Below, piece by piece: positions 2,689 to 53,437 of a stretch of DNA of 64,000 bases. The DNA is from Candidatus Woesearchaeota archaeon (GTDB lineage: Archaea > Nanobdellota > Nanobdellia > Woesearchaeales > GW2011-AR4), in the NCBI GenBank assembly GCA_016185755.1, contig JACPMX010000014.1, positions 117,868-181,867 on the forward strand, written 5' to 3'. The notes below the pieces were generated by a model. That model made no database searches and was not told where the DNA came from. It worked only from the letters and a program-made list of their open reading frames with translations. Every line of letters begins with the position of its first letter. Within the stretch, counting starts at the first letter, position 1. Both the position numbers and the translations under genes were made by a program.

Positions 2689-3300
2689 ATGTTCTATAAA
2701 ATAGAGTTAAAAGACCACATCAGGGTGCCTCCTAACCTGTTCAGCCTTCCGCTTGAGGAAGCTGTGATAAAGAGGATAAAGACCAAGTACAGCGGCTTTA
2801 TCTCAAAGGACCTCGGCATCGTAGTTGACGTGGCCGGAATGAAGGATATAGGGGAAGGTGTCATTATACCGGGAGACGGGGCTTCATACTATGATGTTTC
2901 GTTCGAGCTGCTGACTTTCAAGCCTGAAATGCAGGAAATAGCTATCGGCAGGGTAAAAGACATTGCTGAATTCGGCGCTTTCATAAACATAGGCCCTCTT
3001 GACGGCATGATACACATAAGCCAGACCATGGATGATTTTGTATCGTTCAGCAAGGACAAGACCCTGACCGGGAAGGAATCCAAGAGGGTGCTGAAGGTTG
3101 GCGACGTGTGCAGGGCAAGAATCATAGCAGTCTCGTTCAAGGATGTTTTGAACCCAAAGCTCGGCCTTACAATGAGGCAGCAGGGGCTCGGAAGGCTTGA
3201 CTGGATCAAGGAAGAGCCCGAGGAAAAAGAAGCTCCAAAGAAAGAGGAGAAAGAAGGCAAAGAGCATAAGGAGCACAAGGAAAAAAAGGAAAAGAAATAA
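2689..3300 (+). CDS. rpoE: DNA-directed RNA polymerase subunit E' (Rpo7) with S1 domain and K/E-rich tail
   Basis: 203 aa; Rpb7/RpoE N-domain plus S1 fold; conserved rpoE-spt4-rps24e-rps27ae context. Confidence 0.85.
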   Translation: MFYKIELKDHIRVPPNLFSLPLEEAVIKRIKTKYSGFISKDLGIVVDVAGMKDIGEGVIIPGDGASYYDVSFELLTFKPEMQEIAIGRVKDIAEFGAFINIGPLDGMIHISQTMDDFVSFSKDKTLTGKESKRVLKVGDVCRARIIAVSFKDVLNPKLGLTMRQQGLGRLDWIKEEPEEKEAPKKEEKEGKEHKEHKEKKEKK

Positions 3301-3306
3301 GCGAAA

Positions 3307-3492
3307 ATGAAAAAAAAAGTATGCAAGAGATGCAAGATGCTTGTTGACGGAAATGAATGCCCGGTTTGCAAGACCAACCAGTTCTCTACAAACTGGCAGG
3401 GCAGGCTTTACATTCTTGACTCCGGCAAGTCAATAGTCGCTGAGAAGATAGGCATCAAGGCCAAAGGCGAGTACGCTATAAAGGTAAGATAA
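3307..3492 (+). CDS. spt4: Transcription elongation factor Spt4 (RpoE'')
   Basis: 61 aa; CxxC...CxxC zinc ribbon; ends ...GEYAIKVR like archaeal Spt4. Confidence 0.8.
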   Translation: MKKKVCKRCKMLVDGNECPVCKTNQFSTNWQGRLYILDSGKSIVAEKIGIKAKGEYAIKVR

Positions 3493-3494
3493 TC

Positions 3495-3785
3495 ATGGAA
3501 CTCAATGTTACAAGCACAAAGGAAGAGCCGCTGCTGTCAAGAAGGCTGATCAAGGCTAATTTGGAATTTGAAAAATCCACCCCGTCTTATGCGGAAGTCA
3601 CTGCGCTTCTTGCAGGCAATCTCAAGGCAGACGAGAAACTGATTGCGATAAGGCACATCTACAATTCATTCGGCGCCAAAAAAGCCGATGTTACAGCTTA
3701 TGTATATTCAGACGAGTCCAGGAAGCAGTTCATAGAGCCCAAGAGGAAGGAAAAGAAGGATAAAACAGCTGAAAAGAAAGAGTGA
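3495..3785 (+). CDS. rps24e: 30S ribosomal protein S24e
   Basis: 96 aa; RHIYNSFG motif and gene context. Confidence 0.8.
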   Translation: MELNVTSTKEEPLLSRRLIKANLEFEKSTPSYAEVTALLAGNLKADEKLIAIRHIYNSFGAKKADVTAYVYSDESRKQFIEPKRKEKKDKTAEKKE

Positions 3786-3811
3786 TTTGAAGATTTTATA
3801 ATAAAACTTTA

Positions 3812-3886
3812 AATCCGCCGCTATGCGGCCAAAATTACACTCGGCGAAAATTTTCCTGCCAATAATTTTCGCCTCGGACTATTCAA
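3812..3886 (-). repeat. Interspersed ~70-nt hairpin element, copy 1 (inverted orientation)
   Basis: Reverse complement reads ATAGTCCGAGGCGAA..TGGCAGGAAA..CCGAGTGTAATTTTG-GCCGC ATA GCGGC-GGATTTAAAG; matches the other four copies. Confidence 0.6.
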
Positions 3887-3900
3887 TATAATGAATAAAT

Positions 3901-3972
3901 TGGCGAGGAGTCGCGTGTGGCAGACAGCGACGACGAGCACTAATTATTGTCCGTAGGACAGATTAAGAATCC
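3901..3972 (+). repeat. Interspersed ~70-nt hairpin element, copy 2
   Basis: GGCGAGG..TGGCAGACAG..GAGCACTAATTATTG-GTCC GTA GGAC-AGATTAAGAATCC; forms an inverted pair with copy 1 about 25 nt upstream of rps27ae. Confidence 0.6.
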
Positions 3973-3996
3973 AATTTAACAAAACATAAAACAAAA

Positions 3997-4176
3997 ATGG
4001 CAAAGGAAGCAAAGAAAAAATTGTCTGGGAGATGGAAGCTGTACGAGAAGTCAGGAGACAAGATAACAAGGAAAAACAGGTCATGCCCCAAATGCGGCGA
4101 AGGCACTTTCATGGCAAAGCATGCAAACAGGTGGGCATGCGGCGCTTGCAAATACACTGAATTCCTGCAGAAATAA
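3997..4176 (+). CDS. rps27ae: 30S ribosomal protein S27ae (eS31) zinc-ribbon protein; not in supplied ORF track (59 aa)
   Basis: Translation MAKEAKKKLSGRWKLYEKSGDKITRKNRSCPKCGEGTFMAKHANRWACGACKYTEFLQK; CPKCG...CGAC zinc ribbon; canonical position after rps24e. Confidence 0.7.
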   Translation: MAKEAKKKLSGRWKLYEKSGDKITRKNRSCPKCGEGTFMAKHANRWACGACKYTEFLQK

Positions 4177-5419: not shown

Positions 5420-5450
5420 TTAATTATTCTTTTTATTGGATTATTAGTCA
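5420..5450 (-). promoter_or_regulatory. Shared promoter-like box upstream of rpl12, also upstream of rpl10 at 6640-6672
   Basis: Minus sense AAAACATTGACTAATAATCCAATAA (upstream of rpl12) and AAAACATTAACAAAAAATCCAATAA (upstream of rpl10) are near-identical AT-rich boxes 30-80 nt before the start codons. Confidence 0.35.
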
Positions 5451-5475
5451 ATGTTTTCAATCGTTAATGAGGTTC

Positions 5476-6591: not shown

Positions 6592-6686
6592 TTTGATTTT
6601 TTTAAATTTATTTTTCGTTATTGAGTTTTTTGTTGTTTTTAATTGAATTTATTTTATTGGATTTTTTGTTAATGTTTTTAATTTTT

Positions 6687-12836: not shown

Positions 12837-13043
12837 AGTATTATCTACTATTGGGAATATTCAAATATTTCTATTTTGCAAAGTATATTTCTGAGTATCA
12901 CTGGCCACTGGACATGGCTACGTGAACTATATAAATCAATAGATTTAACGCATTTAAAAAATAAAAGCCGCACAACTTGGCGGTACGGAAGCTTCAGAAC
13001 CTCAATAAATATGCTGGGCTATCAAGTATTTAAATTTTACTAT

Positions 13044-13156
13044 GCCGCGGTCGCATAACTTGGAAGTGCGGGAGCTTCAGAACCTCCTGTCCGAAAGGGC
13101 ATCTGGGTTCAAATCCTAAAAGGATTTGCTTTTGGGTGGAAATCCCAGCCGCGGCG
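13044..13156 (+). tRNA. tRNA-Leu(CAG), class II, with ~29-nt non-canonical intron in the T-loop
   Basis: Acceptor GCCGCGG/CCGCGGC; D arm CGCA/TGCG; anticodon stem-loop GGAGC-TTCAGAA-CCTCC; long variable arm GTCC-GAAA-GGGC. T arm is CTGGG-TTCAAAT...CCCAG, interrupted by TAAAAGGATTTGCTTTTGGGTGGAAATCC, whose own ends are complementary (GGATTT/AAATCC). Confidence 0.6.
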
Positions 13157-13236
13157 CTTATGTTCTACAAAAACTGCCTTTGCATTCAAAGGAAAGATTT
13201 ATAATCCAACTAAATGATACTTGCCTTGGGGGTTAC

Positions 13237-18378: not shown

Positions 18379-18823
18379 AGAATCCGGCAGTTTTTGTGTC
18401 GAACTTCCAGTCTTCTGATACTCTTCCGCTCCTTTTGTAGTATTTTGTAAGCCGGTTTATCTTTGACTCTGTAAGCATAAGGCCTCTTGCAGCAGTCTCG
18501 TCATGCCTGTTTGCCTCGATGTGCTTCATTATGGCTGCATACCTCCTGAACAACGCAACCAAATCCTCCGGTATCTCCGGCATAATCTTTTTTTCCTTCA
18601 GTATTGCGCTTATTGATTTGCCGCAAAGGGCGAGAACGCTCGGAATGCCATAGACATCCCTCAGCATGATGCCTATCTGTGAGTTGTTTTTGCCGTCTTT
18701 TGCAAGCTTCGCTATCAGAAGCTCGACTTCTTTTGCCTTGTACCTTATCCATGAAGGCGAGGTCTTCTTTGCAGGCTTCTTGGAGCCGTGCTTTCCCCTC
18801 TTCCTGGAGTGCATTCGTGCCAT
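18368..18823 (-). CDS. rps15: 30S ribosomal protein S15 (uS15/S13e)
   Basis: Real start MARMHSRKRGKHGS...; archaeal uS15. The supplied ORF extends upstream into the leader. Confidence 0.8.
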   Translation of the reverse strand: MARMHSRKRGKHGSKKPAKKTSPSWIRYKAKEVELLIAKLAKDGKNNSQIGIMLRDVYGIPSVLALCGKSISAILKEKKIMPEIPEDLVALFRRYAAIMKHIEANRHDETAARGLMLTESKINRLTKYYKRSGRVSEDWKFDTKTAGFFSE

Positions 18824-18854
18824 TTTTGTTATTTTATTTTGATTTTTATTTAAT

Positions 18855-18927
18855 TTCAATCTGTTGCTTCGCAACATTAATTTGTGCTCGGGCTCACTTT
18901 CCTGCCATATCGTTCGCCCTCGCCTAT
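18855..18927 (-). repeat. Interspersed ~70-nt hairpin element, copy 4 (in rps15 5' leader region)
   Basis: Reverse complement ATAGGCGAGGGCGAACGATATGGCAGGAAAGTGAGCCCGAGCACAAATTAATG-GTTGC GAA GCAAC-AGATTGAAATT; ends about 40 nt before the rps15 ATG. Confidence 0.6.
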
Positions 18928-19028
18928 ACATTAAAAACTGGAAGAACAAAGTTTGTCATCCAGCATAGCCAAGCTGTTATACCGGGCTATCTTTCAATTA
19001 AATGGAATATTGGATGATTTATAAATCT

Positions 19029-19319
19029 TTACTTTGCATCCTCAATTCGTATAATGTGGTAGCCGAACTGCGTCTTTACAGGACCTAGTATGGCTCCCTT
19101 GCTGCCGTTAAAGCATGCATTCTCAAACTCCCTGACCATTTGGCCTTTCCTGAACCATCCCAAATTCCCTCCTTTTTTCCGGGAAGGGCACAATGATTTT
19201 TCCATGGCCACATCTTCAAATTTCTTTCCATGGGTTACATCATAGAGCGCCACGTTGGCATCCTGCTCTGTCTTCAGCAGAATATGCGATGCATTCACTT
19301 GGCTTGGCATTTTTGACAT
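19029..19319 (-). CDS. Parvulin-type peptidyl-prolyl cis-trans isomerase (PpiC)
   Basis: 97 aa from MSKMPSQVNASHILL...GGNLGWFRKGQMV...GYHIIRIE. The supplied 150-aa ORF runs upstream through a tRNA gene and is over-extended. Confidence 0.75.
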   Translation of the reverse strand: MSKMPSQVNASHILLKTEQDANVALYDVTHGKKFEDVAMEKSLCPSRKKGGNLGWFRKGQMVREFENACFNGSKGAILGPVKTQFGYHIIRIEDAK

Positions 19320-19324
19320 TCCTC

Positions 19325-19355
19325 GGAACGATGAAAAATAGCCCCGGGCAGATTC
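19325..19355 (-). repeat. 31-bp direct repeat duplicating the 3' end plus trailer of tRNA-Gln
   Basis: ggaacgatgaaaaatagccccgggcagattc at 19325-19355 is identical to 19413-19443, which spans the tRNA-Gln T-arm/acceptor 3' strand and 14 nt of trailer. Confidence 0.7.
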
Positions 19356-19426
19356 CCACCAGCCTTTTAGGAAAAGCCTGGGGAAAACTATGCAATGTGG
19401 CATAAATGCCACGGAACGATGAAAAA

Positions 19427-19515
19427 TAGCCCCGGGCAGATTCGAACTGCCGTCAGAGCCTTTCCATTGCACTGCAACCAAAGGGCCCTATGCTTGACCG
19501 CTACACCACGGGGCT
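19427..19515 (-). tRNA. tRNA-Gln(UUG) with 16-nt canonical (37/38) intron
   Basis: Minus-strand acceptor AGCCCCG/CGGGGCT; anticodon stem-loop GGGCC-CUUUGG[intron TTGCAGTGCAATGGAA]A-GGCTC; T arm GGCAG-TTCGAAT-CTGCC; discriminator A. Confidence 0.6.
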
Positions 19516-22673: not shown

Positions 22674-22829
22674 GCAAAACTCACAATCACCCCTTTAGTC
22701 TTTGTGGTGAGATTGTTTCTTTGCCTTCATTAGAAAACCACCCCCAACGTTTTTCATTATGAAGGCAAGCGGTGGCTCAGCAATGAGCCACATTTTTTTA
22801 TTTTGAAATAGTTAGAAATCTACGAATTT

Positions 22830-22900
22830 TTCAATCCGTCGCTTCGCGACATAATCTTGTGCTCAGCAAAATTGATTTCCACTAATTTTGCCTCGCCTAT
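22830..22900 (-). repeat. Interspersed ~70-nt hairpin element, copy 5
   Basis: Reverse complement ATAGGCGAGGCAAAATTAGTGGAAATCAATTTTGCTGAGCACAAGATTATG-GTCGC GAA GCGAC-GGATTGAAAAATT; lies between the convergent ftsZ and nitroreductase genes. Confidence 0.6.
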
Positions 22901-23010
22901 TGATTCAATAAAAATATAAAAAGCGGATTACTTTCTTCTCGTTCCACATCCAAAAGTCGCTTGCCGGAAGTTTTTGAAAATGTTATTCGTATTGAACTTA
23001 GAATTGGATT

Positions 23011-36534: not shown

Positions 36535-36640
36535 CGCGCCGGGGAGGATTCGAATTCGGGATGAAAGAGCAGTTACTCGATCATGCCCCCGGCCTAGAGG
36601 TTAGGAACCTCTCGCTCTATCCAAGCTGAGCTACCGGCGC
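36535..36640 (-). tRNA. tRNA-Arg(CCU) with ~31-nt non-canonical intron in the T-arm
   Basis: Minus-strand acceptor GCGCCGG/CCGGCGC; D arm GCTC/GAGC; anticodon stem-loop AGAGG-TTCCTAA-CCTCT. T stem GGGGG/CCTCC is interrupted by CATGATCGAGTAACTGCTCTTTCATCCCGAA before TTCGAAT; discriminator G. Confidence 0.6.
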
Positions 36641-46827: not shown

Positions 46828-48780
46828 ATGCTTGAATATGTTATTGGAGTCGGCATATCTTCCTTGCTTGCTGCAGTGTTGTTTTCATTCTATATCCTTA
46901 AAAAGCCAACTGGAACAGCCAAAATGCAGGAAATTTCCGAGGCAATACACAAGGGTGCACTTACCTTCTTAAGAAAAGAGTATGAAGTCATAGCAGTTTT
47001 TATTGCTGTTGTGGCATTGATAATGTATGTATTCCTTGAGAACGGCCACAGGCTTGCGGTATCTTTCATCATGGGCGGATTTGCGTCTGCGCTGGCCGGC
47101 AACCTTGGAATGAGGATATCAACAAAATCGAATGCAAGGGCGGCAGAGGCAACAAAATCCCATATAGGGGATGGCCTGAAAGTTGCCTTCTATTCCGGCG
47201 CCGTAATGGGCTTAAGCGTTGTAGGAATAGGCTTGCTCGGAGTTTCAATTTTGTATTTGGTTTTTGACGATCCGAGTATAATATACGGCTTTGGGTTCGG
47301 GGCCTCCTCAATTGCCCTGTTTGCAAGGGTTGGCGGCGGAATTTATACAAAAGCAGCCGATGTCGGAAGTGATTTGGTCGGCAAGGTTGAAAAAGGAATT
47401 CCCGAAGACGACCCAAGAAACCCTGCAGTCATAGCAGACAATGTAGGCGACAATGTGGGGGATGTTGCAGGCATGGGCGCCGACCTCTTTGAAAGCTATG
47501 TGAACAGCATAATAGCGGCAATGGTGATCGGGCTTGTCTTAAGCCAAGGCCACTTAATTTTTCCGCTGGGCCTTGCAGCGTCAGGTATTTTGGCGTCAAT
47601 AATCGGCATGTTTTTTGTAAAGGCAAAGGATGAGAAACATCTTTTTAGGGCATTGAACACAGGTCTGTATACAAGCACAGTTTTGGCTGCGATATTCGCA
47701 TTTATTCTTGTCAAGCACCAGGATCTTGGCATCGGAGTTTTCTACGCAACCTTGTCCGGGTTGATTGTAGGTGTTGTAATAGGCTGGATTACGGAATATT
47801 ACACATCGAACCGCAACAGGCCGACACAAAGCATAGCAATAGCTGCAAAAACAGGGGCTGGAACAAATGTGATACAGGGGCTTGCTGTCGGCATGCTTTC
47901 TACATTAATTCCGGTTGTTTCGGTTTCGATGGCGGTTCTTGTCGCTTACAAGTTTGCTGGTCTTTACGGGATTGCAATTGCAGGAGTGGGCATGCTCACA
48001 ACCCTTGGATTTACTTTGGCAATTGAAACTTATGGCGCTGTTGCCGACAATGCGGCAGGAATTTCGGAAATGGCCGACGTTGGAAAAGATGTGAGGAAAA
48101 AAACCGAAATGCTTGATGCAGTAGGCAACACGACAGCTGCAATAGGGAAAGGATTTGCAATGGGCAGCGCTGCATTGACTGCTCTTGCTCTTTTTGCCAG
48201 CTTCACCCAGATCACGAAAATTGAGGTCATAAGCATTTCAGACCCCAATGTAATTTTTGGGTTATTCATAGGCGGAATGCTTCCTTTCCTGTTCAGCTCT
48301 TTTGCAATGCAGGCTGTCGGAAAAGCGGCGTCAGAGATAGTTGAGGAAGTAAGAAGGCAGTGGAAATCCATAAAAGGATTGGCGCAGGGAAAAGCAAAGC
48401 CTGACTATGAGAAATGCATCGCAATAAGCACCAGAAGCGCCTTGAAGCAGATGACAATTCCTTCCATTCTTGCAATTCTTGCTCCGATACTGATTGGATA
48501 TTTATTCGGTCTCGAAGCCCTTGGAGGCCTGCTTGTCGGCTCGATTGTATCGGGATTTTCGCTTGCGGTTTTCATGGCCAACTCCGGAGGAGCATGGGAC
48601 AATGCGAAGAAATACATAGAGGCTGGAAACCTTGGTGGCAAAGGAAGTTACGCCCACAAGGCCGCTGTTGTAGGAGACACAGTTGGGGACCCGTTCAAGG
48701 ACACAGCAGGGCCTTCATTGAACATATTAATCAAGCTGATGTCCATTGTTGCGATTGTGTTTGTGCCGCTGATTTTATAA
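46828..48780 (+). CDS. hppA: Membrane-bound H+/Na+-translocating pyrophosphatase, predicted K+-dependent type
   Basis: 650 aa; [10 protein letters not shown] motif (Ala at the K+-dependence position); DVGADL and DNVGDNVGD motifs. Confidence 0.9.
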
Positions 48781-51358: not shown

Positions 51359-53437
51359 TTGTTGATGTTCCTAAGCATTGTTATTGTTATAAGTGTTTTG
51401 GCATTGCTGTTTGCAGGCTATCTGGCAAGAGGAGTTCTTAGGAGAGATACCGGAACAGCTGCAATGCAGGAAGTTTCTAATGCAATCAAGATAGGCGCAG
51501 AGGCATTCCTGAAAAGGCAGTACACCACAATAGCGATAATGTCGGCAGCCCTTGCTGTCATCATATATGCCGCTTATGCGTTATTTGGCAATCCGGGCCT
51601 TGGATGGCGCACATCAGTCTCATTTGTCTTTGGAGCAATCAGCTCGGGAATCGCAGGCATTGTGGGCATGTGGATTTCAATAAGGACAAACATCAGGACT
51701 GCAAGCGCTGCAAGAAAAAGCATGAATGACGCTTTTGTAACAGCGTTCAGGGGAGGGGCGGTTTCCGGCATCGTGATAGTTGCGATGTCATTGCTTGGAG
51801 TCGCGCTGATATATTATGTGTTCAGCATCGGCGTTGATCCTAAGGAAGTTCCTTTCCTGATTGTAGGATATGGATTTGGAGCTTCATTTGTAGCTTTGTT
51901 CGCCCAGCTTGGCGGCGGAATTTATACAAAAGCAGCCGATGTCGGAAGTGATTTAGTCGGCAAGATTGAAAAAGGAATTCCCGAAGACGACCCAAGAAAC
52001 CCGGCAGTCATAGCAGACCTTGTCGGAGACAATGTGGGGGATTGTGCTGGCAGGGGCGCTGACCTATTCGAAAGCACAGCTGCTGAAAATATAGGTGCAA
52101 TGATACTTGGTGTTGCCCTCTATCCCATTTTCGGAGTAAAAGGAGTTATGTTCCCTCTTGTTGTAAGGGCATTTGGGCTTGTAGCAACAATAATCGGAAT
52201 AATGACCGTCAAGCTCAGAAACGAAAATGAAAACCCGATGACAGCATTGAACAGGGGATACTACATAACCAGCTTCCTTGCAGCAATTGTATTTTACTTC
52301 ACTACAAAATGGCTTCTCCCAGGCACGGGAAACTGGTTTTTCTTTGCCGGCTTGGTTGGGCTGGCAACGAGCATTTTGATTGTGTGGATAACAGTTTATT
52401 ATACTGAATCAGACCCGTTCTTTTTTAAAAACAGCCCTGTAAGAAAAATTGCAAAAGCATCATTGACAGGTCATGCAACCAACATAATTTCAGGATTTGC
52501 AGTAGCAATGGAAGCAACTGTGCTGCCCGTGATTGTCTTATCATTGGCGCTTCTTTCCTCGTACAAGCTCGGATTGATGAGCGGCGTTGCGCATGGCGGC
52601 TTATACGGAACTGCAATCGCAACAATGGGAATGCTTGCAACAGCAGCTTACATCCTTGCAATGGACAATTTCGGCCCGATAACAGACAATGCCGGCGGAA
52701 TTGCCGTTATGGGCGGGGCTCCAAATGAGGTAAGGAAAAGAACAGACAAGCTTGATGCTGTCGGCAACACAACAAAGGCATTGACAAAAGGCTATGCCAT
52801 AGGAAGCGCCGCATTAGCTGCATTCCTGCTGTTCTCAGCCTATCTTGATGACGTTGCAAAGCATATTGGGGTAAAGGTTGTTTCAGTTGACATTGCAAAA
52901 ATTGATGTATTTGTAGGGGCTTTGATAGGCGCAATGCTTATTTTCCTTTTCAGCGCGTTTGCCATAAGGGCTGTGGGAGACACAGCTTACTCAATAGTAA
53001 ATGAAGTAAGAAGGCAGTGGAAAGCCAAAAAAGGGATAATGACCGGCAAGGAAAAGCCCGACTATGCAAGAGTTGTTGACATTTGCGTCAAGGCTTCTCT
53101 CAAGGAGATGGTTTTGCCCGGATTGGTTGTTGTTGCGGTCACAGTAATTGTTGGAGTTGTCTTGGGATATGAAGCTGCAGCTGCATTTTTGATGGTTGCC
53201 ACAATCACAGGCATTTTGATGGCCCTTCTTCTTAACACAGGCGGAGGAGCATGGGACAATGCGAAGAAGCTCATTGAGGAAGGCGAGCACGGCGGAAAAG
53301 GTTCAGATGCGCACAAGGCAGCTGTCACAGGCGACACAATCGGAGACCCTTTCAAGGACACTGCAGGGCCTTCATTGCACGTTTTGATTAAGCTGTTGAG
53401 CACTATAACTTTGGTTCTTGTGCCGCTGTTTGTGTGA
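51359..53437 (+). CDS. hppA: Membrane-bound pyrophosphatase paralogue, predicted K+-independent type
   Basis: 692 aa; GNTTKALTKG (Lys at the K+-dependence position). Confidence 0.9.
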   Translation: MLMFLSIVIVISVLALLFAGYLARGVLRRDTGTAAMQEVSNAIKIGAEAFLKRQYTTIAIMSAALAVIIYAAYALFGNPGLGWRTSVSFVFGAISSGIAGIVGMWISIRTNIRTASAARKSMNDAFVTAFRGGAVSGIVIVAMSLLGVALIYYVFSIGVDPKEVPFLIVGYGFGASFVALFAQLGGGIYTKAADVGSDLVGKIEKGIPEDDPRNPAVIADLVGDNVGDCAGRGADLFESTAAENIGAMILGVALYPIFGVKGVMFPLVVRAFGLVATIIGIMTVKLRNENENPMTALNRGYYITSFLAAIVFYFTTKWLLPGTGNWFFFAGLVGLATSILIVWITVYYTESDPFFFKNSPVRKIAKASLTGHATNIISGFAVAMEATVLPVIVLSLALLSSYKLGLMSGVAHGGLYGTAIATMGMLATAAYILAMDNFGPITDNAGGIAVMGGAPNEVRKRTDKLDAVGNTTKALTKGYAIGSAALAAFLLFSAYLDDVAKHIGVKVVSVDIAKIDVFVGALIGAMLIFLFSAFAIRAVGDTAYSIVNEVRRQWKAKKGIMTGKEKPDYARVVDICVKASLKEMVLPGLVVVAVTVIVGVVLGYEAAAAFLMVATITGILMALLLNTGGGAWDNAKKLIEEGEHGGKGSDAHKAAVTGDTIGDPFKDTAGPSLHVLIKLLSTITLVLVPLFV

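Follow-up and report, generated by a model that had tools for sequence, protein, structure and literature searches.

A putative mobile pair of hairpin modules between rps24e and rps27ae in a woesearchaeal archaeon

Introduction

Repetitive extragenic palindromes (REP) and bacterial interspersed mosaic elements (BIMEs; REPINs) of Enterobacteria and Pseudomonas are extragenic, multi-copy units built of imperfect palindromes and found singly and in pairs. A REP unit is about 35 nt long (20-40 nt), has one hairpin and carries a conserved 5′ GTAG; units of two types (Y and Z) form inverted pairs across a short linker. They mostly occupy spacers of co-directional or convergent genes, presumably fold in transcripts, and insert without target duplication. 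Here we describe a comparable arrangement in a DPANN archaeon. In a 64-kb stretch of Candidatus Woesearchaeota contig JACPMX010000014.1 (GC 42%; hereafter the window, at its full length), the genes rps24e and rps27ae are separated by a 211-nt spacer that holds two head-to-head copies of a hairpin repeat. A full-text literature search found no structured intergenic repeats of the REP/BIME or Correia type in DPANN archaea.

Two further groups of small repeats invite comparison. Miniature inverted-repeat transposable elements (MITEs) of the IS66/ISBst12 type are short and non-coding, with imperfect ends, 8-bp target duplications and many identical copies. The Correia (CREE) and ERIC/IRU repeats are bacterial MITE-like elements that carry outward promoters, and their hairpins in read-through transcripts alter the expression or stability of neighbouring genes.

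The archaeal repeat shares with REP/BIME its extragenic, multi-copy occurrence as imperfect palindromes, alone and in pairs, its location mostly between co-directional or convergent genes, its presumed folding in transcripts and the inverted pairing of two unit types, here A and B, across a short linker. An initial annotation of the locus had likened it to a BIME. The likeness extends to the architecture, with 19 of 19 adjacent pairs inverted and mostly made of A plus B, and stops short of membership: the units are about 75 nt long with two hairpins (three in full-length solo copies), the consensus has GGCGAGG, CCGAGCAC and GGAUUGAA in place of GTAG, and a mobile subfamily carries terminal inverted repeats and 8-bp duplications. 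No REP-associated tyrosine transposase (RAYT) was seen among the selected neighbouring open reading frames (ORFs) scanned with Pfam. In many copies, moreover, the 3′ end of the unit coincides with the TFB recognition element (BRE) and TATA box of an archaeal promoter, and the host is a DPANN archaeon.

The mobile subfamily, represented by metagenome loci L119 and L127, matches IS66/ISBst12 MITEs in its short, non-coding elements, imperfect ends, 8-bp duplications and many identical copies. Unlike such MITEs, the pair in the window, like most other pairs, has no such ends, and the internal arms form a conserved structured module that also exists alone. With Correia and ERIC/IRU the family shares its nature as a small intergenic repeat, whereas it is unrelated to them in sequence, host domain and promoter type (archaeal BRE/TATA), and compensatory change preserves the module structure across strongly diverged copies, as those families do not typically show. 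A covariation-supported fold, strand specificity and conserved unpaired or non-canonical positions recall the structured RNA families of Rfam, but no Rfam 15 model matches the modules at E values up to 1-10. The family is related in kind to MITEs and REP/BIME repeats and is a member of neither known family.

Results

Two inverted hairpin modules fill the spacer

The repeated module of about 75 nt comprises a long hairpin (hp1), an A/U-rich linker, a short hairpin (hp2) and the motif GGATTGAA, which runs into an AT-rich box. Plain sequence searches (blastn and a repeat finder over the 64-kb window) found no repeat of the spacer elsewhere. What the window copies have in common is structure and short motifs, not long stretches of sequence; they were first recognised by eye and then with covariance models. 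Model R1 was structured by hand from four window copies and one copy from the related locus L006, and model R2 was built from 63 metagenome copies alone, without window copies. Both recover the same five window copies (E1, E2, C3, C4 and C5). The first two lie in the rps24e–rps27ae spacer (3786-3996, 211 nt), which is organised as follows:

3495-3785, plus strand: rps24e (Pfam Ribosomal_S24e, E 1.3e-14; stop codon TGA at 3783-3785), upstream flank of the putative insertion
3786-3806, minus strand: AT-rich tail of arm E1; the minus strand reads GGATTTAAAG/TTTTATTATAAAATCTTCAAA, and the likeness to other pairs fades at about 3809
3807-3883, minus strand: arm E1, type B (UCCGAGG...CCGAGUGU); R1 68.5 bits, R2 58.5 bits (E 5e-13)
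3884-3897, no strand: junction between the arms, 14 nt, inside the AT-rich palindrome TATTCAATA/TAATGAATA (3880-3897)
3898-3969, plus strand: arm E2, type A (GGCGAGG...CGAGCAC); R1 70.7 bits, R2 47.1 bits (E 5.6e-10)
3970-3996, plus strand: E2 tail, reaching to the start codon of rps27ae (TCCAATTTAACAAAACATAAAACAAAA); the likeness to the pair at locus L144 runs to about 3985-3988
3997-4176, plus strand: rps27ae (Pfam Ribosomal_S27, E 1e-17), downstream flank

The two arms differ in stem sequence and share one architecture in opposite orientation: E1 is antisense and faces the end of rps24e, and E2 is sense and lies just upstream of rps27ae. On the bottom strand, the structured strand of E1, hp1 occupies 3840-3877 with a 10-bp stem (3843-3852/3864-3873), hp2 lies at 3817-3829 (GCCGC-TAT-GCGGC), and GGATT is the reverse complement of 3812-3816. 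Both hairpins are present in the predicted fold and appear as an inverted repeat in the repeat search. In E2, hp1 (3903-3938) has two tandem G·A steps and a loop at 3915-3926 (GUGUGGCAGACA), followed by hp2 at 3948-3960 (UGUCC-GUA-GGACA) and GATT at 3961-3964. The palindrome at the junction is made of two inverted 'AATGAATA' boxes, one ahead of each module, like the junctions in other pairs. The plus strand of the whole spacer folds into four hairpins (z = -3.9 versus shuffles).

The inverted-pair arrangement is real and far beyond chance. The initial annotation had described two oppositely oriented repeat copies, 14 nt apart, that occupy the spacer almost entirely. The copies and their spacing are as described (E1 at 3807-3883, minus; E2 at 3898-3969, plus). 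The pair does fill the spacer: the cores of E1 and E2 cover 149 of the 211 nt, and the stretch alignable to pairs at other loci is about 3809-3988.

The spacer is probably a lineage-specific insertion

We compared the junction with 80 syntenic loci retrieved by an RpoE′ protein search, nearly all of them from metagenome-assembled genomes of Woesearchaeota and Nanoarchaeota, with identities of up to 92%. Among the 65 Woesearchaeota relatives that have both genes, the gap between S24e and S27ae is 0-10 nt in 40 and exceeds 100 nt in only five. For example, rps24e and rps27ae meet as TAA-AA-ATG or TAA-A-ATG in the close relatives L004, L007 and L008, that is a stop codon, A or AA, and ATG; L006 has a single antisense arm of the repeat at this junction. 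These gaps bear out the earlier claim that the spacer splits a normally tight gene pair, and the comparison of synteny proposed with it marks the spacer as specific to its lineage. Because 40 of the 65 relatives have 0-10 nt between the genes, we take the 211-nt spacer to be a lineage-specific insertion.

The window pair (3809-3988) is 77% identical over 185 nt to the pair at L144, which adjoins different genes, and 72-77% identical to pairs at L087, L175, L179, L193, L153 and L116. The pair is therefore a dispersed unit. The empty sites in relatives, together with the 77% identity to pairs at other loci, argue for an insertion in the window. A tblastn search with S24e and S27ae on the metagenome loci gave no second example of the repeat-bearing window junction.

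Unrelated inserts occupy the same junction in two close relatives, L001 (7349-7532, 184 nt) and L003 (7122-7397, 276 nt); the latter has a weak module-like match of 13.6 bits only. Within this clade, small insertions may favour the rps24e–rps27ae junction as a hot spot. Further upstream, the window carries the genes for RpoE′ (2689-3300) and Spt4 (3307-3492), both identified with Pfam.

Other copies in the window and novelty of the family

Three more copies lie elsewhere in the window:

18853-18928, minus strand: solo copy C4, directly upstream of rps15 (ATG at 18823); R1 90.1 bits, R2 83.7 bits
22828-22981 (core 22828-22901), minus strand: full-length solo copy C3; R1 79.4 bits, R2 79.9 bits
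6683-6733, minus strand: reduced copy C5; R1 24.7 bits (E 4e-5), R2 30.7 bits (E 1e-5)

Copy C3, between ftsZ (plus) and a nitroreductase gene (minus; both by Pfam), consists of an additional hairpin (hp0), a U-rich linker and the hp1-hp2 core. In C5, between rpl1 and rpl10, hp1 is truncated and the stop codon of rpl1 is overlapped by AAUAG. The spacer between L1 and L10 contains a repeat copy in L006 as well, whose stems are unrelated to those of the window copy.

Rfam 15 returned no match for the spacer, the other window copies or six loci, either at the gathering threshold or at E values up to 1-10, and ARAGORN found no tRNA in the spacer. A literature search on repeats and MITEs of Woesearchaeota and DPANN archaea found nothing relevant. 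The repeat family is therefore new, with neither an Rfam family nor a match found in the literature.

Several observations concern the surroundings of these copies. Two 36-nt A-rich stretches (5426-5461 and 6647-6682), 83% identical, lie upstream of rpl12 and rpl10, which are minus-strand genes, and both correspond to the 'tail' found after GATTNAAAA in the repeat. The window spacer between rpl10 and rpl12 retains only CGATTGAAAAC and the A-rich tail; in L005 and L006 a full or partial module is found there, and the remnant looks like decay by deletion. From the ftsZ stop codon to C3 (22674-22800), the sequence is hairpin-rich, with two C-rich loops on the plus strand (G-rich on the minus strand) and a GTGGCTCAGCAATGAGCCAC-T7 hairpin. 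Part of this region is conserved in L152, and Rfam has no match for it; a small non-coding RNA and an ORF of 32 codons are both conceivable.

Module structure and selection on one strand

The R2 consensus has 76 positions and reads aAUaGGCGAGG-[6-9-bp variable stem]-uuaAUGGCAGAAAA-[stem]-CCGAGCAC-aAaAuUU-uGucgC-GAA-GcgaCg-GAUUGAAaa. The base of hp1 is an invariant GGCGAG/CGAGC duplex with tandem G·A, in which the step is always C-G, G·A, A·G, G-C, and the loop is UGGCAGAAA-like. The triloop of hp2 is C-GAA-G in nearly all copies, and C-GUA-G or C-AUA-G in E2, E1 and C5. Type A arms read GGCGAGG...CCGAGCAC (as E2), and type B arms U(U/C)CGAGG...CCGAGUGU (as E1).

We measured covariation in 54 distinct metagenome copies. 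In their alignment (A4), which is fitted to the model and thereby inflates pairing somewhat, 83.8% of cells are paired versus 64% in shuffles, and 12 of the 18 pairs show double compensatory changes. Both G·A positions are non-standard in all 54 sequences and are G·A/A·G in 53; U·G stands at the base of hp2 in 39. Mismatches are asymmetric, with G·U 55 times versus A·C 5 times, and G·A 135 times versus C·U once. Model fitting does not explain the variety of pair types or the strand asymmetry. Because the mismatch spectrum is one-sided, with G·U and G·A far above A·C and C·U, the structure is selected on a single strand, namely that reading GGCGAG...GGAUUGAA: for E1 this is the bottom strand, for E2 the top one.

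Many solo copies have a conserved 5′ extension that forms the third hairpin, hp0, with two covarying pairs (RNAalifold, 15 full-length solos), followed by the U-rich linker UUUUGAUGUUUUAAUGAAUA. At L104, a sub-threshold match to RNase P RNA (68.6 bits) lies immediately upstream of such a full-length solo. Orthologous solo copies (the window copy at rps15 versus L106, and L097 versus L134) retain the motifs while their stems are wholly different yet still paired: hp1 stems turn over completely between orthologous copies, and flanks and motifs stay fixed.

A number of known folds were considered and rejected. A closing helix between an upstream GTAATCCGC and the downstream GCGGATT has a variable position without covariation, and RNAalifold places GTAATCCGC in the 3′ arm of the separate upstream hairpin hp0. 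By inspection of the consensus, a K-turn (L7Ae site) does not fit, as the G·A pairs are flanked on both sides by Watson-Crick pairs with no bulge. Nor do C/D small RNAs (sRNAs; no RUGAUGA or CUGA boxes) or H/ACA sRNAs (CAC(A/U)A gives no fixed ACA, and there is no large internal loop). A tRNA-like fold, hammerhead and other ribozymes and a bulge-helix-bulge were dismissed on the same inspection and the lack of Rfam matches.

Some copies contain an extra GC-rich hairpin of about 40 nt (e.g. GUUGCGUGCGAGAACGCUCGCACGCUCGCGUUCAAC), nested in the hp1 loop or, in one copy, in hp2. Copies with such hairpins are found at L129 2501-2615, L111 6632-6746, L118 5046-5153 and L006 9973-10070. The nested hairpin may represent either an expansion segment or another small palindromic element, one with hairpin loops as its target.

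Distribution and pair architecture

Metagenome copies were collected by a pattern scan of contigs followed by R1 searches. In total, the window and loci L001-L200 contain 106 copies from 65 sources, with L005 and L006 included among the syntenic genomes. All 19 adjacent pairs (at most 150 nt apart) are head-to-head, that is divergent, and none is convergent or tandem. Within pairs the 5′ ends face each other, 5-69 nt separate the cores, and most pairs combine one A arm with one B arm.

True solos account for 52 copies, and 87 of the 106 copies lie outside crude ORF calls. Solos in co-directional intergenic regions are oriented 25 sense versus 7 antisense. The neighbouring genes include rps27ae, rps15, rpl10, rpl12, ftsZ/nitroreductase and GpmA-, NifU- and T2SSE-like genes. 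No copies were found in L001-L004, L007 or L008, even with search filters off, and a scan of viral contigs with the copy pattern gave a single match, which has no hairpins and is due to chance. The repeats break metagenome assemblies, and many contigs end inside repeat copies.

A mobile subfamily with IS66/ISBst12-type ends

One subfamily of pairs is shown by its sequence features to be an active 239-bp MITE with ISBst12/IS66-type ends. Many contigs from samples Ga0105164 and Ga0209824 start or stop within an identical arm, about 17 nt into it. The identity of these 100%-identical arms stops sharply after ...GCTAAAGTATTAC (...GTATTAC), beyond which at least nine different flanks follow. The complete element spans 239 bp at L119 2788-3026; elements of the subfamily are 239-299 bp long and non-coding. 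Imperfect terminal inverted repeats bound the L119 element (GTTATTATTTAGCA/GTAATACTTTAGCT, 10 of 14 positions), a second set of terminal repeats in the subfamily being GTTATTATTCAGCA/GTAACACTTTAGTA, and perfect 8-bp target duplications flank both L119 (TTATAAGT) and L127 (GTAAATTA). Among 17 complete pairs surveyed for target duplications and terminal repeats, these two alone are convincing. The end pattern GT(A/T)A...T(T/C)AGCA resembles the GTAACTGCTCAGCA of ISDge4, a member of the ISBst12 group (PMC12898284). ISDge4 is bounded by the terminal repeats GTAACTGCTCAGCA and GTGACTACTCAGCA, has a direct repeat of 8 bp and encodes one transposase of 449 aa.

A complete 1574-bp insertion sequence (IS) of the ISBst12 group (IS66 family) is present at L086 130-1703. 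It encodes a single 451-aa protein with Pfam domains DDE_Tnp_IS66 (E 3e-41) and zf-IS66, has terminal repeats GTACGTGGAAAGCTT (GTA... end) and an 8-bp duplication CACAAATA, and its insertion point is precisely the outer end of a MITE arm. The likeness between its ends and the MITE end is loose, as GTACGTGGAAAGCTT shares only GTA...AGCTT with the latter. Locus L017 begins with an IS end of the L086 type, and L114 has a decayed IS66 relative in the equivalent position beside a MITE arm; this transposase remnant probably stems from the same event as L086 and is no independent evidence.

The window pair differs from this subfamily. Its flanks share a single 8-mer match (ATAAAACA) and agree at 4 of 14 terminal-repeat positions, which is the chance level. 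Because it has no terminal repeats and no duplication and its arms differ, the window pair is best regarded as an old or decayed copy. The initial annotation had allowed for a recent insertion; the differing stems of the arms and the bare borders of the window copy speak against recency.

Promoters and terminators

Upstream of 60 window genes, numbered relative to the ATG, the sequence is T-rich at -30 to -27, A-rich at -25 to -22 and A-rich at -38 to -33, the usual BRE position. Because this archaeal promoter register sits at -38 to -22 from the ATG, most window genes appear to be leaderless. Ahead of rps15, for instance, positions -38 to -31 read GATTGAAA and positions -31 to -24 read ATTAAATA. 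For copies oriented with the downstream gene, the start codon mostly lies 27-39 nt past the module; with a Shine-Dalgarno sequence the distance is 43-56 nt. An ATTAAA-type box usually follows GATTGAA. In many copies, the module 3′ end (GGATTGAA with the AT-rich box) falls exactly at the BRE/TATA position of the downstream gene. We infer that the 3′ end is, or abuts, an outward BRE/TATA, in which case a symmetric pair would fire both ways. At E2, GATT lies at -36 from the rps27ae ATG, near the usual BRE position; promoter function at E2 itself is doubtful.

The full-length solos alone carry hp0 and the UUUUGAUGUUUU tract, and the window pair has no hp0. An intrinsic terminator in the window pair was rejected, with no hairpin followed by an oligo-U tract on the plus strand, and no oligo-T follows either arm. 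Since T runs on the spacer's plus strand do not exceed 4 nt, transcription could plausibly continue through from rps24e, and termination is not indicated. The earlier suggestion of a terminator/promoter cassette hence divides into parts. The promoter part gains from the register inferred across the family and loses from the poor TATA position of E2 itself (AAGAATCC), and the terminator part finds no counterpart in the spacer.

Discussion

On balance, we lean towards reading the spacer as an old insertion of a mobile, MITE-like cassette of hairpins and promoters whose hairpins act in transcripts, by analogy with BIME and Correia elements. A composite MITE-like repeat would have entered a junction originally 0-2 nt long, bringing two modules of about 75 nt head to head, each folding on one strand, and the abutting rps24e and rps27ae would have become two genes with four hairpins between them. 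Pairs would spread as non-autonomous elements and be tolerated beside genes by virtue of outward BRE/TATA ends that re-supply a promoter in either orientation. Hairpins on the sense strand would fold in the transcripts that cross them, where they may mark or protect the 3′ end of the upstream mRNA and may insulate neighbouring genes, much like REP/BIME and Correia elements in bacteria. Selfish spread is documented directly by the identity of copies, by their terminal repeats and target duplications and by polymorphism in their presence or absence, and an ISBst12-group transposase gene occurs in the same populations as the MITE copies.

Several points weigh against this interpretation. At the borders of the window pair, no terminal inverted repeat or target duplication was found, and the TATA position of E2 reads AAGAATCC, which is poor. 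The sense bias of the solo copies (25 versus 7) suggests a function tied to transcripts, and the retention of motifs with re-paired stems at orthologous sites looks like host-level purifying selection rather than junk DNA. Finally, a DDE transposase has no known need for internal hairpins, and transposition therefore fails to explain structural selection on one strand.

The second-ranked explanation is one that we consider possible but unlikely: the modules would primarily be host-functional, cis-acting structured RNAs, and the MITE a secondary capture between IS66-type ends. Such an RNA would be intercistronic or promoter-proximal, with its tandem-G·A base and UGGCAGAAA loop as protein-binding sites, and would control the stability, processing or translation of adjoining genes. 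Covariation with one-strand mismatch asymmetry, non-Watson-Crick positions that do not vary (of 54 sequences, 53 have G·A/A·G and 39 have U·G at the base of hp2), the conserved loop sequence, orthologous copies with fully compensated stems, the sense bias in co-directional spacers, the third covarying hairpin of full-length solos and the copies ahead of rps15, rpl10, rpl12 and rps27ae all favour it. Yet copies are polymorphic among close relatives and missing from L001-L004, L007 and L008, they also adjoin unrelated genes (ftsZ/nitroreductase, GpmA-, NifU- and T2SSE-like), every pair contains an antisense arm, and identical copies with target duplications indicate selfish spread. In tight pairs, with 5-16 nt between the arms, there is no room for an upstream promoter, and no Rfam family matches the modules.

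A broader view, which we offer tentatively and hold to be rather unlikely, treats the modules as a new class of structured nucleic-acid element, a general intergenic 'punctuation' of reduced DPANN genomes, acting as RNA or as sense-strand DNA within a mobile cassette domesticated by the host. A specific protein would bind the invariant tandem-G·A base and the UGGCAGAAA loop, and the module would link the point where a transcription unit ends to the BRE/TATA of the unit that follows. Purifying selection would act at orthologous sites, and symmetric pairs would occasionally be mobilised by IS66-type transposases.

Third in rank, and improbable in our judgement, is that the hairpins act as single-stranded DNA, similar to REP/BIME or to IS200/IS605 and palindrome-associated transposable elements (PATEs), through an HUH (Y1) enzyme or folding on the lagging-strand template; the pair would then be the archaeal counterpart of a REPIN or BIME. 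The motif C-GAA-G or C-GNA-G is that of the exceptionally stable d(GCGAAGC) DNA mini-hairpins, and tandem G·A in a Y-GA-R context is very stable in DNA. The hp2 of the module is nearly always C-GAA-G or C-GNA-G, its tandem G·A lies in a Y-GA-R context, two arm types form inverted pairs as in BIMEs, and small extra hairpins are nested in the hairpin loops of some copies. However, the terminal inverted repeats and 8-bp duplications of the mobile subfamily typify DDE rather than HUH transposition, there is no GTAG-like 5′ motif, and base pairing between the two arms of a pair does not occur. Pfam found no Y1 or RAYT protein among the selected neighbouring ORFs, in which no systematic search was made. 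Conservation in place at orthologous sites would also be unexpected for a purely transposition-related structure.

It is very improbable that E1 and E2 are independent, divergent small-RNA genes with a common bidirectional promoter inside the 14-nt junction. In favour of such genes, the sequence of the junction is an AT-rich palindrome and each arm has its structured strand pointing outwards. However, the GCGAG/CCGAG starts lie only about 24 nt apart in the window and as little as about 15 nt apart in L152, and the promoter register of this genome wants a TATA box some 24-31 nt upstream of the start. Transcription from the junction cannot begin at the 5′ end of hp1 because the starts are too close for this spacing, and junction promoters driving each arm were rejected on that ground; nor does an oligo-T terminator follow either arm. 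That the element is an autoregulatory ribosomal-protein leader (an rRNA mimic) for rps27ae is hardly tenable: several copies do precede rps27ae, rps15, rpl10 and rpl12, but the module also precedes many unrelated genes, sometimes antisense, is not confined to one ribosomal-protein 5′ untranslated region, is missing from the corresponding operons of close relatives, and is mobile.

The family demonstrates that even symbiont-type archaeal genomes of about 1 Mb carry proliferating hairpin repeats, and that such repeats can break rps24e–rps27ae, among the most conserved of archaeal gene junctions. If the promoter and insulator functions hold, the elements would rewire operons by delivering ready-made archaeal promoters, and the invariant tandem-G·A, loop and triloop would provide a testable protein-binding motif. 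The repeats are also open to confusion with small-RNA genes or riboswitches.

Other features of the window

An archaeal RNase P RNA matches the minus strand at 37-367 (71.1 bits, E 1e-19), below the Rfam gathering score of 84. A 400-nt gene-free region (12837-13236) contains a 35-nt direct repeat (12969-13003 and 13052-13086, 86% identical) and has tRNA-like ends (GCCGCGG...GGGTTCAAATCC...CCGCGGCGC). Neither Rfam nor ARAGORN matches this region, which may be a tRNA with unusual introns or another non-coding RNA.

A 38-nt direct repeat (19318-19355 and 19406-19443; 95% identical, 88 nt apart) duplicates one end of a tRNA gene. This tRNA (19427-19515, minus strand) is assigned an odd 4-base anticodon by ARAGORN and scores 46.6 bits with Rfam; the repeat could be an old integration site or a partial duplication. 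Long direct repeats at 47287-48774 and 51866-53431 (72-85% identical, about 4.6 kb apart) lie within ORFs 46828-48780 and 51365-53437, which are probably paralogous genes. A further tRNA match of 106 nt (36535-36640, minus strand, 42.4 bits) is of a length that suggests an intron.

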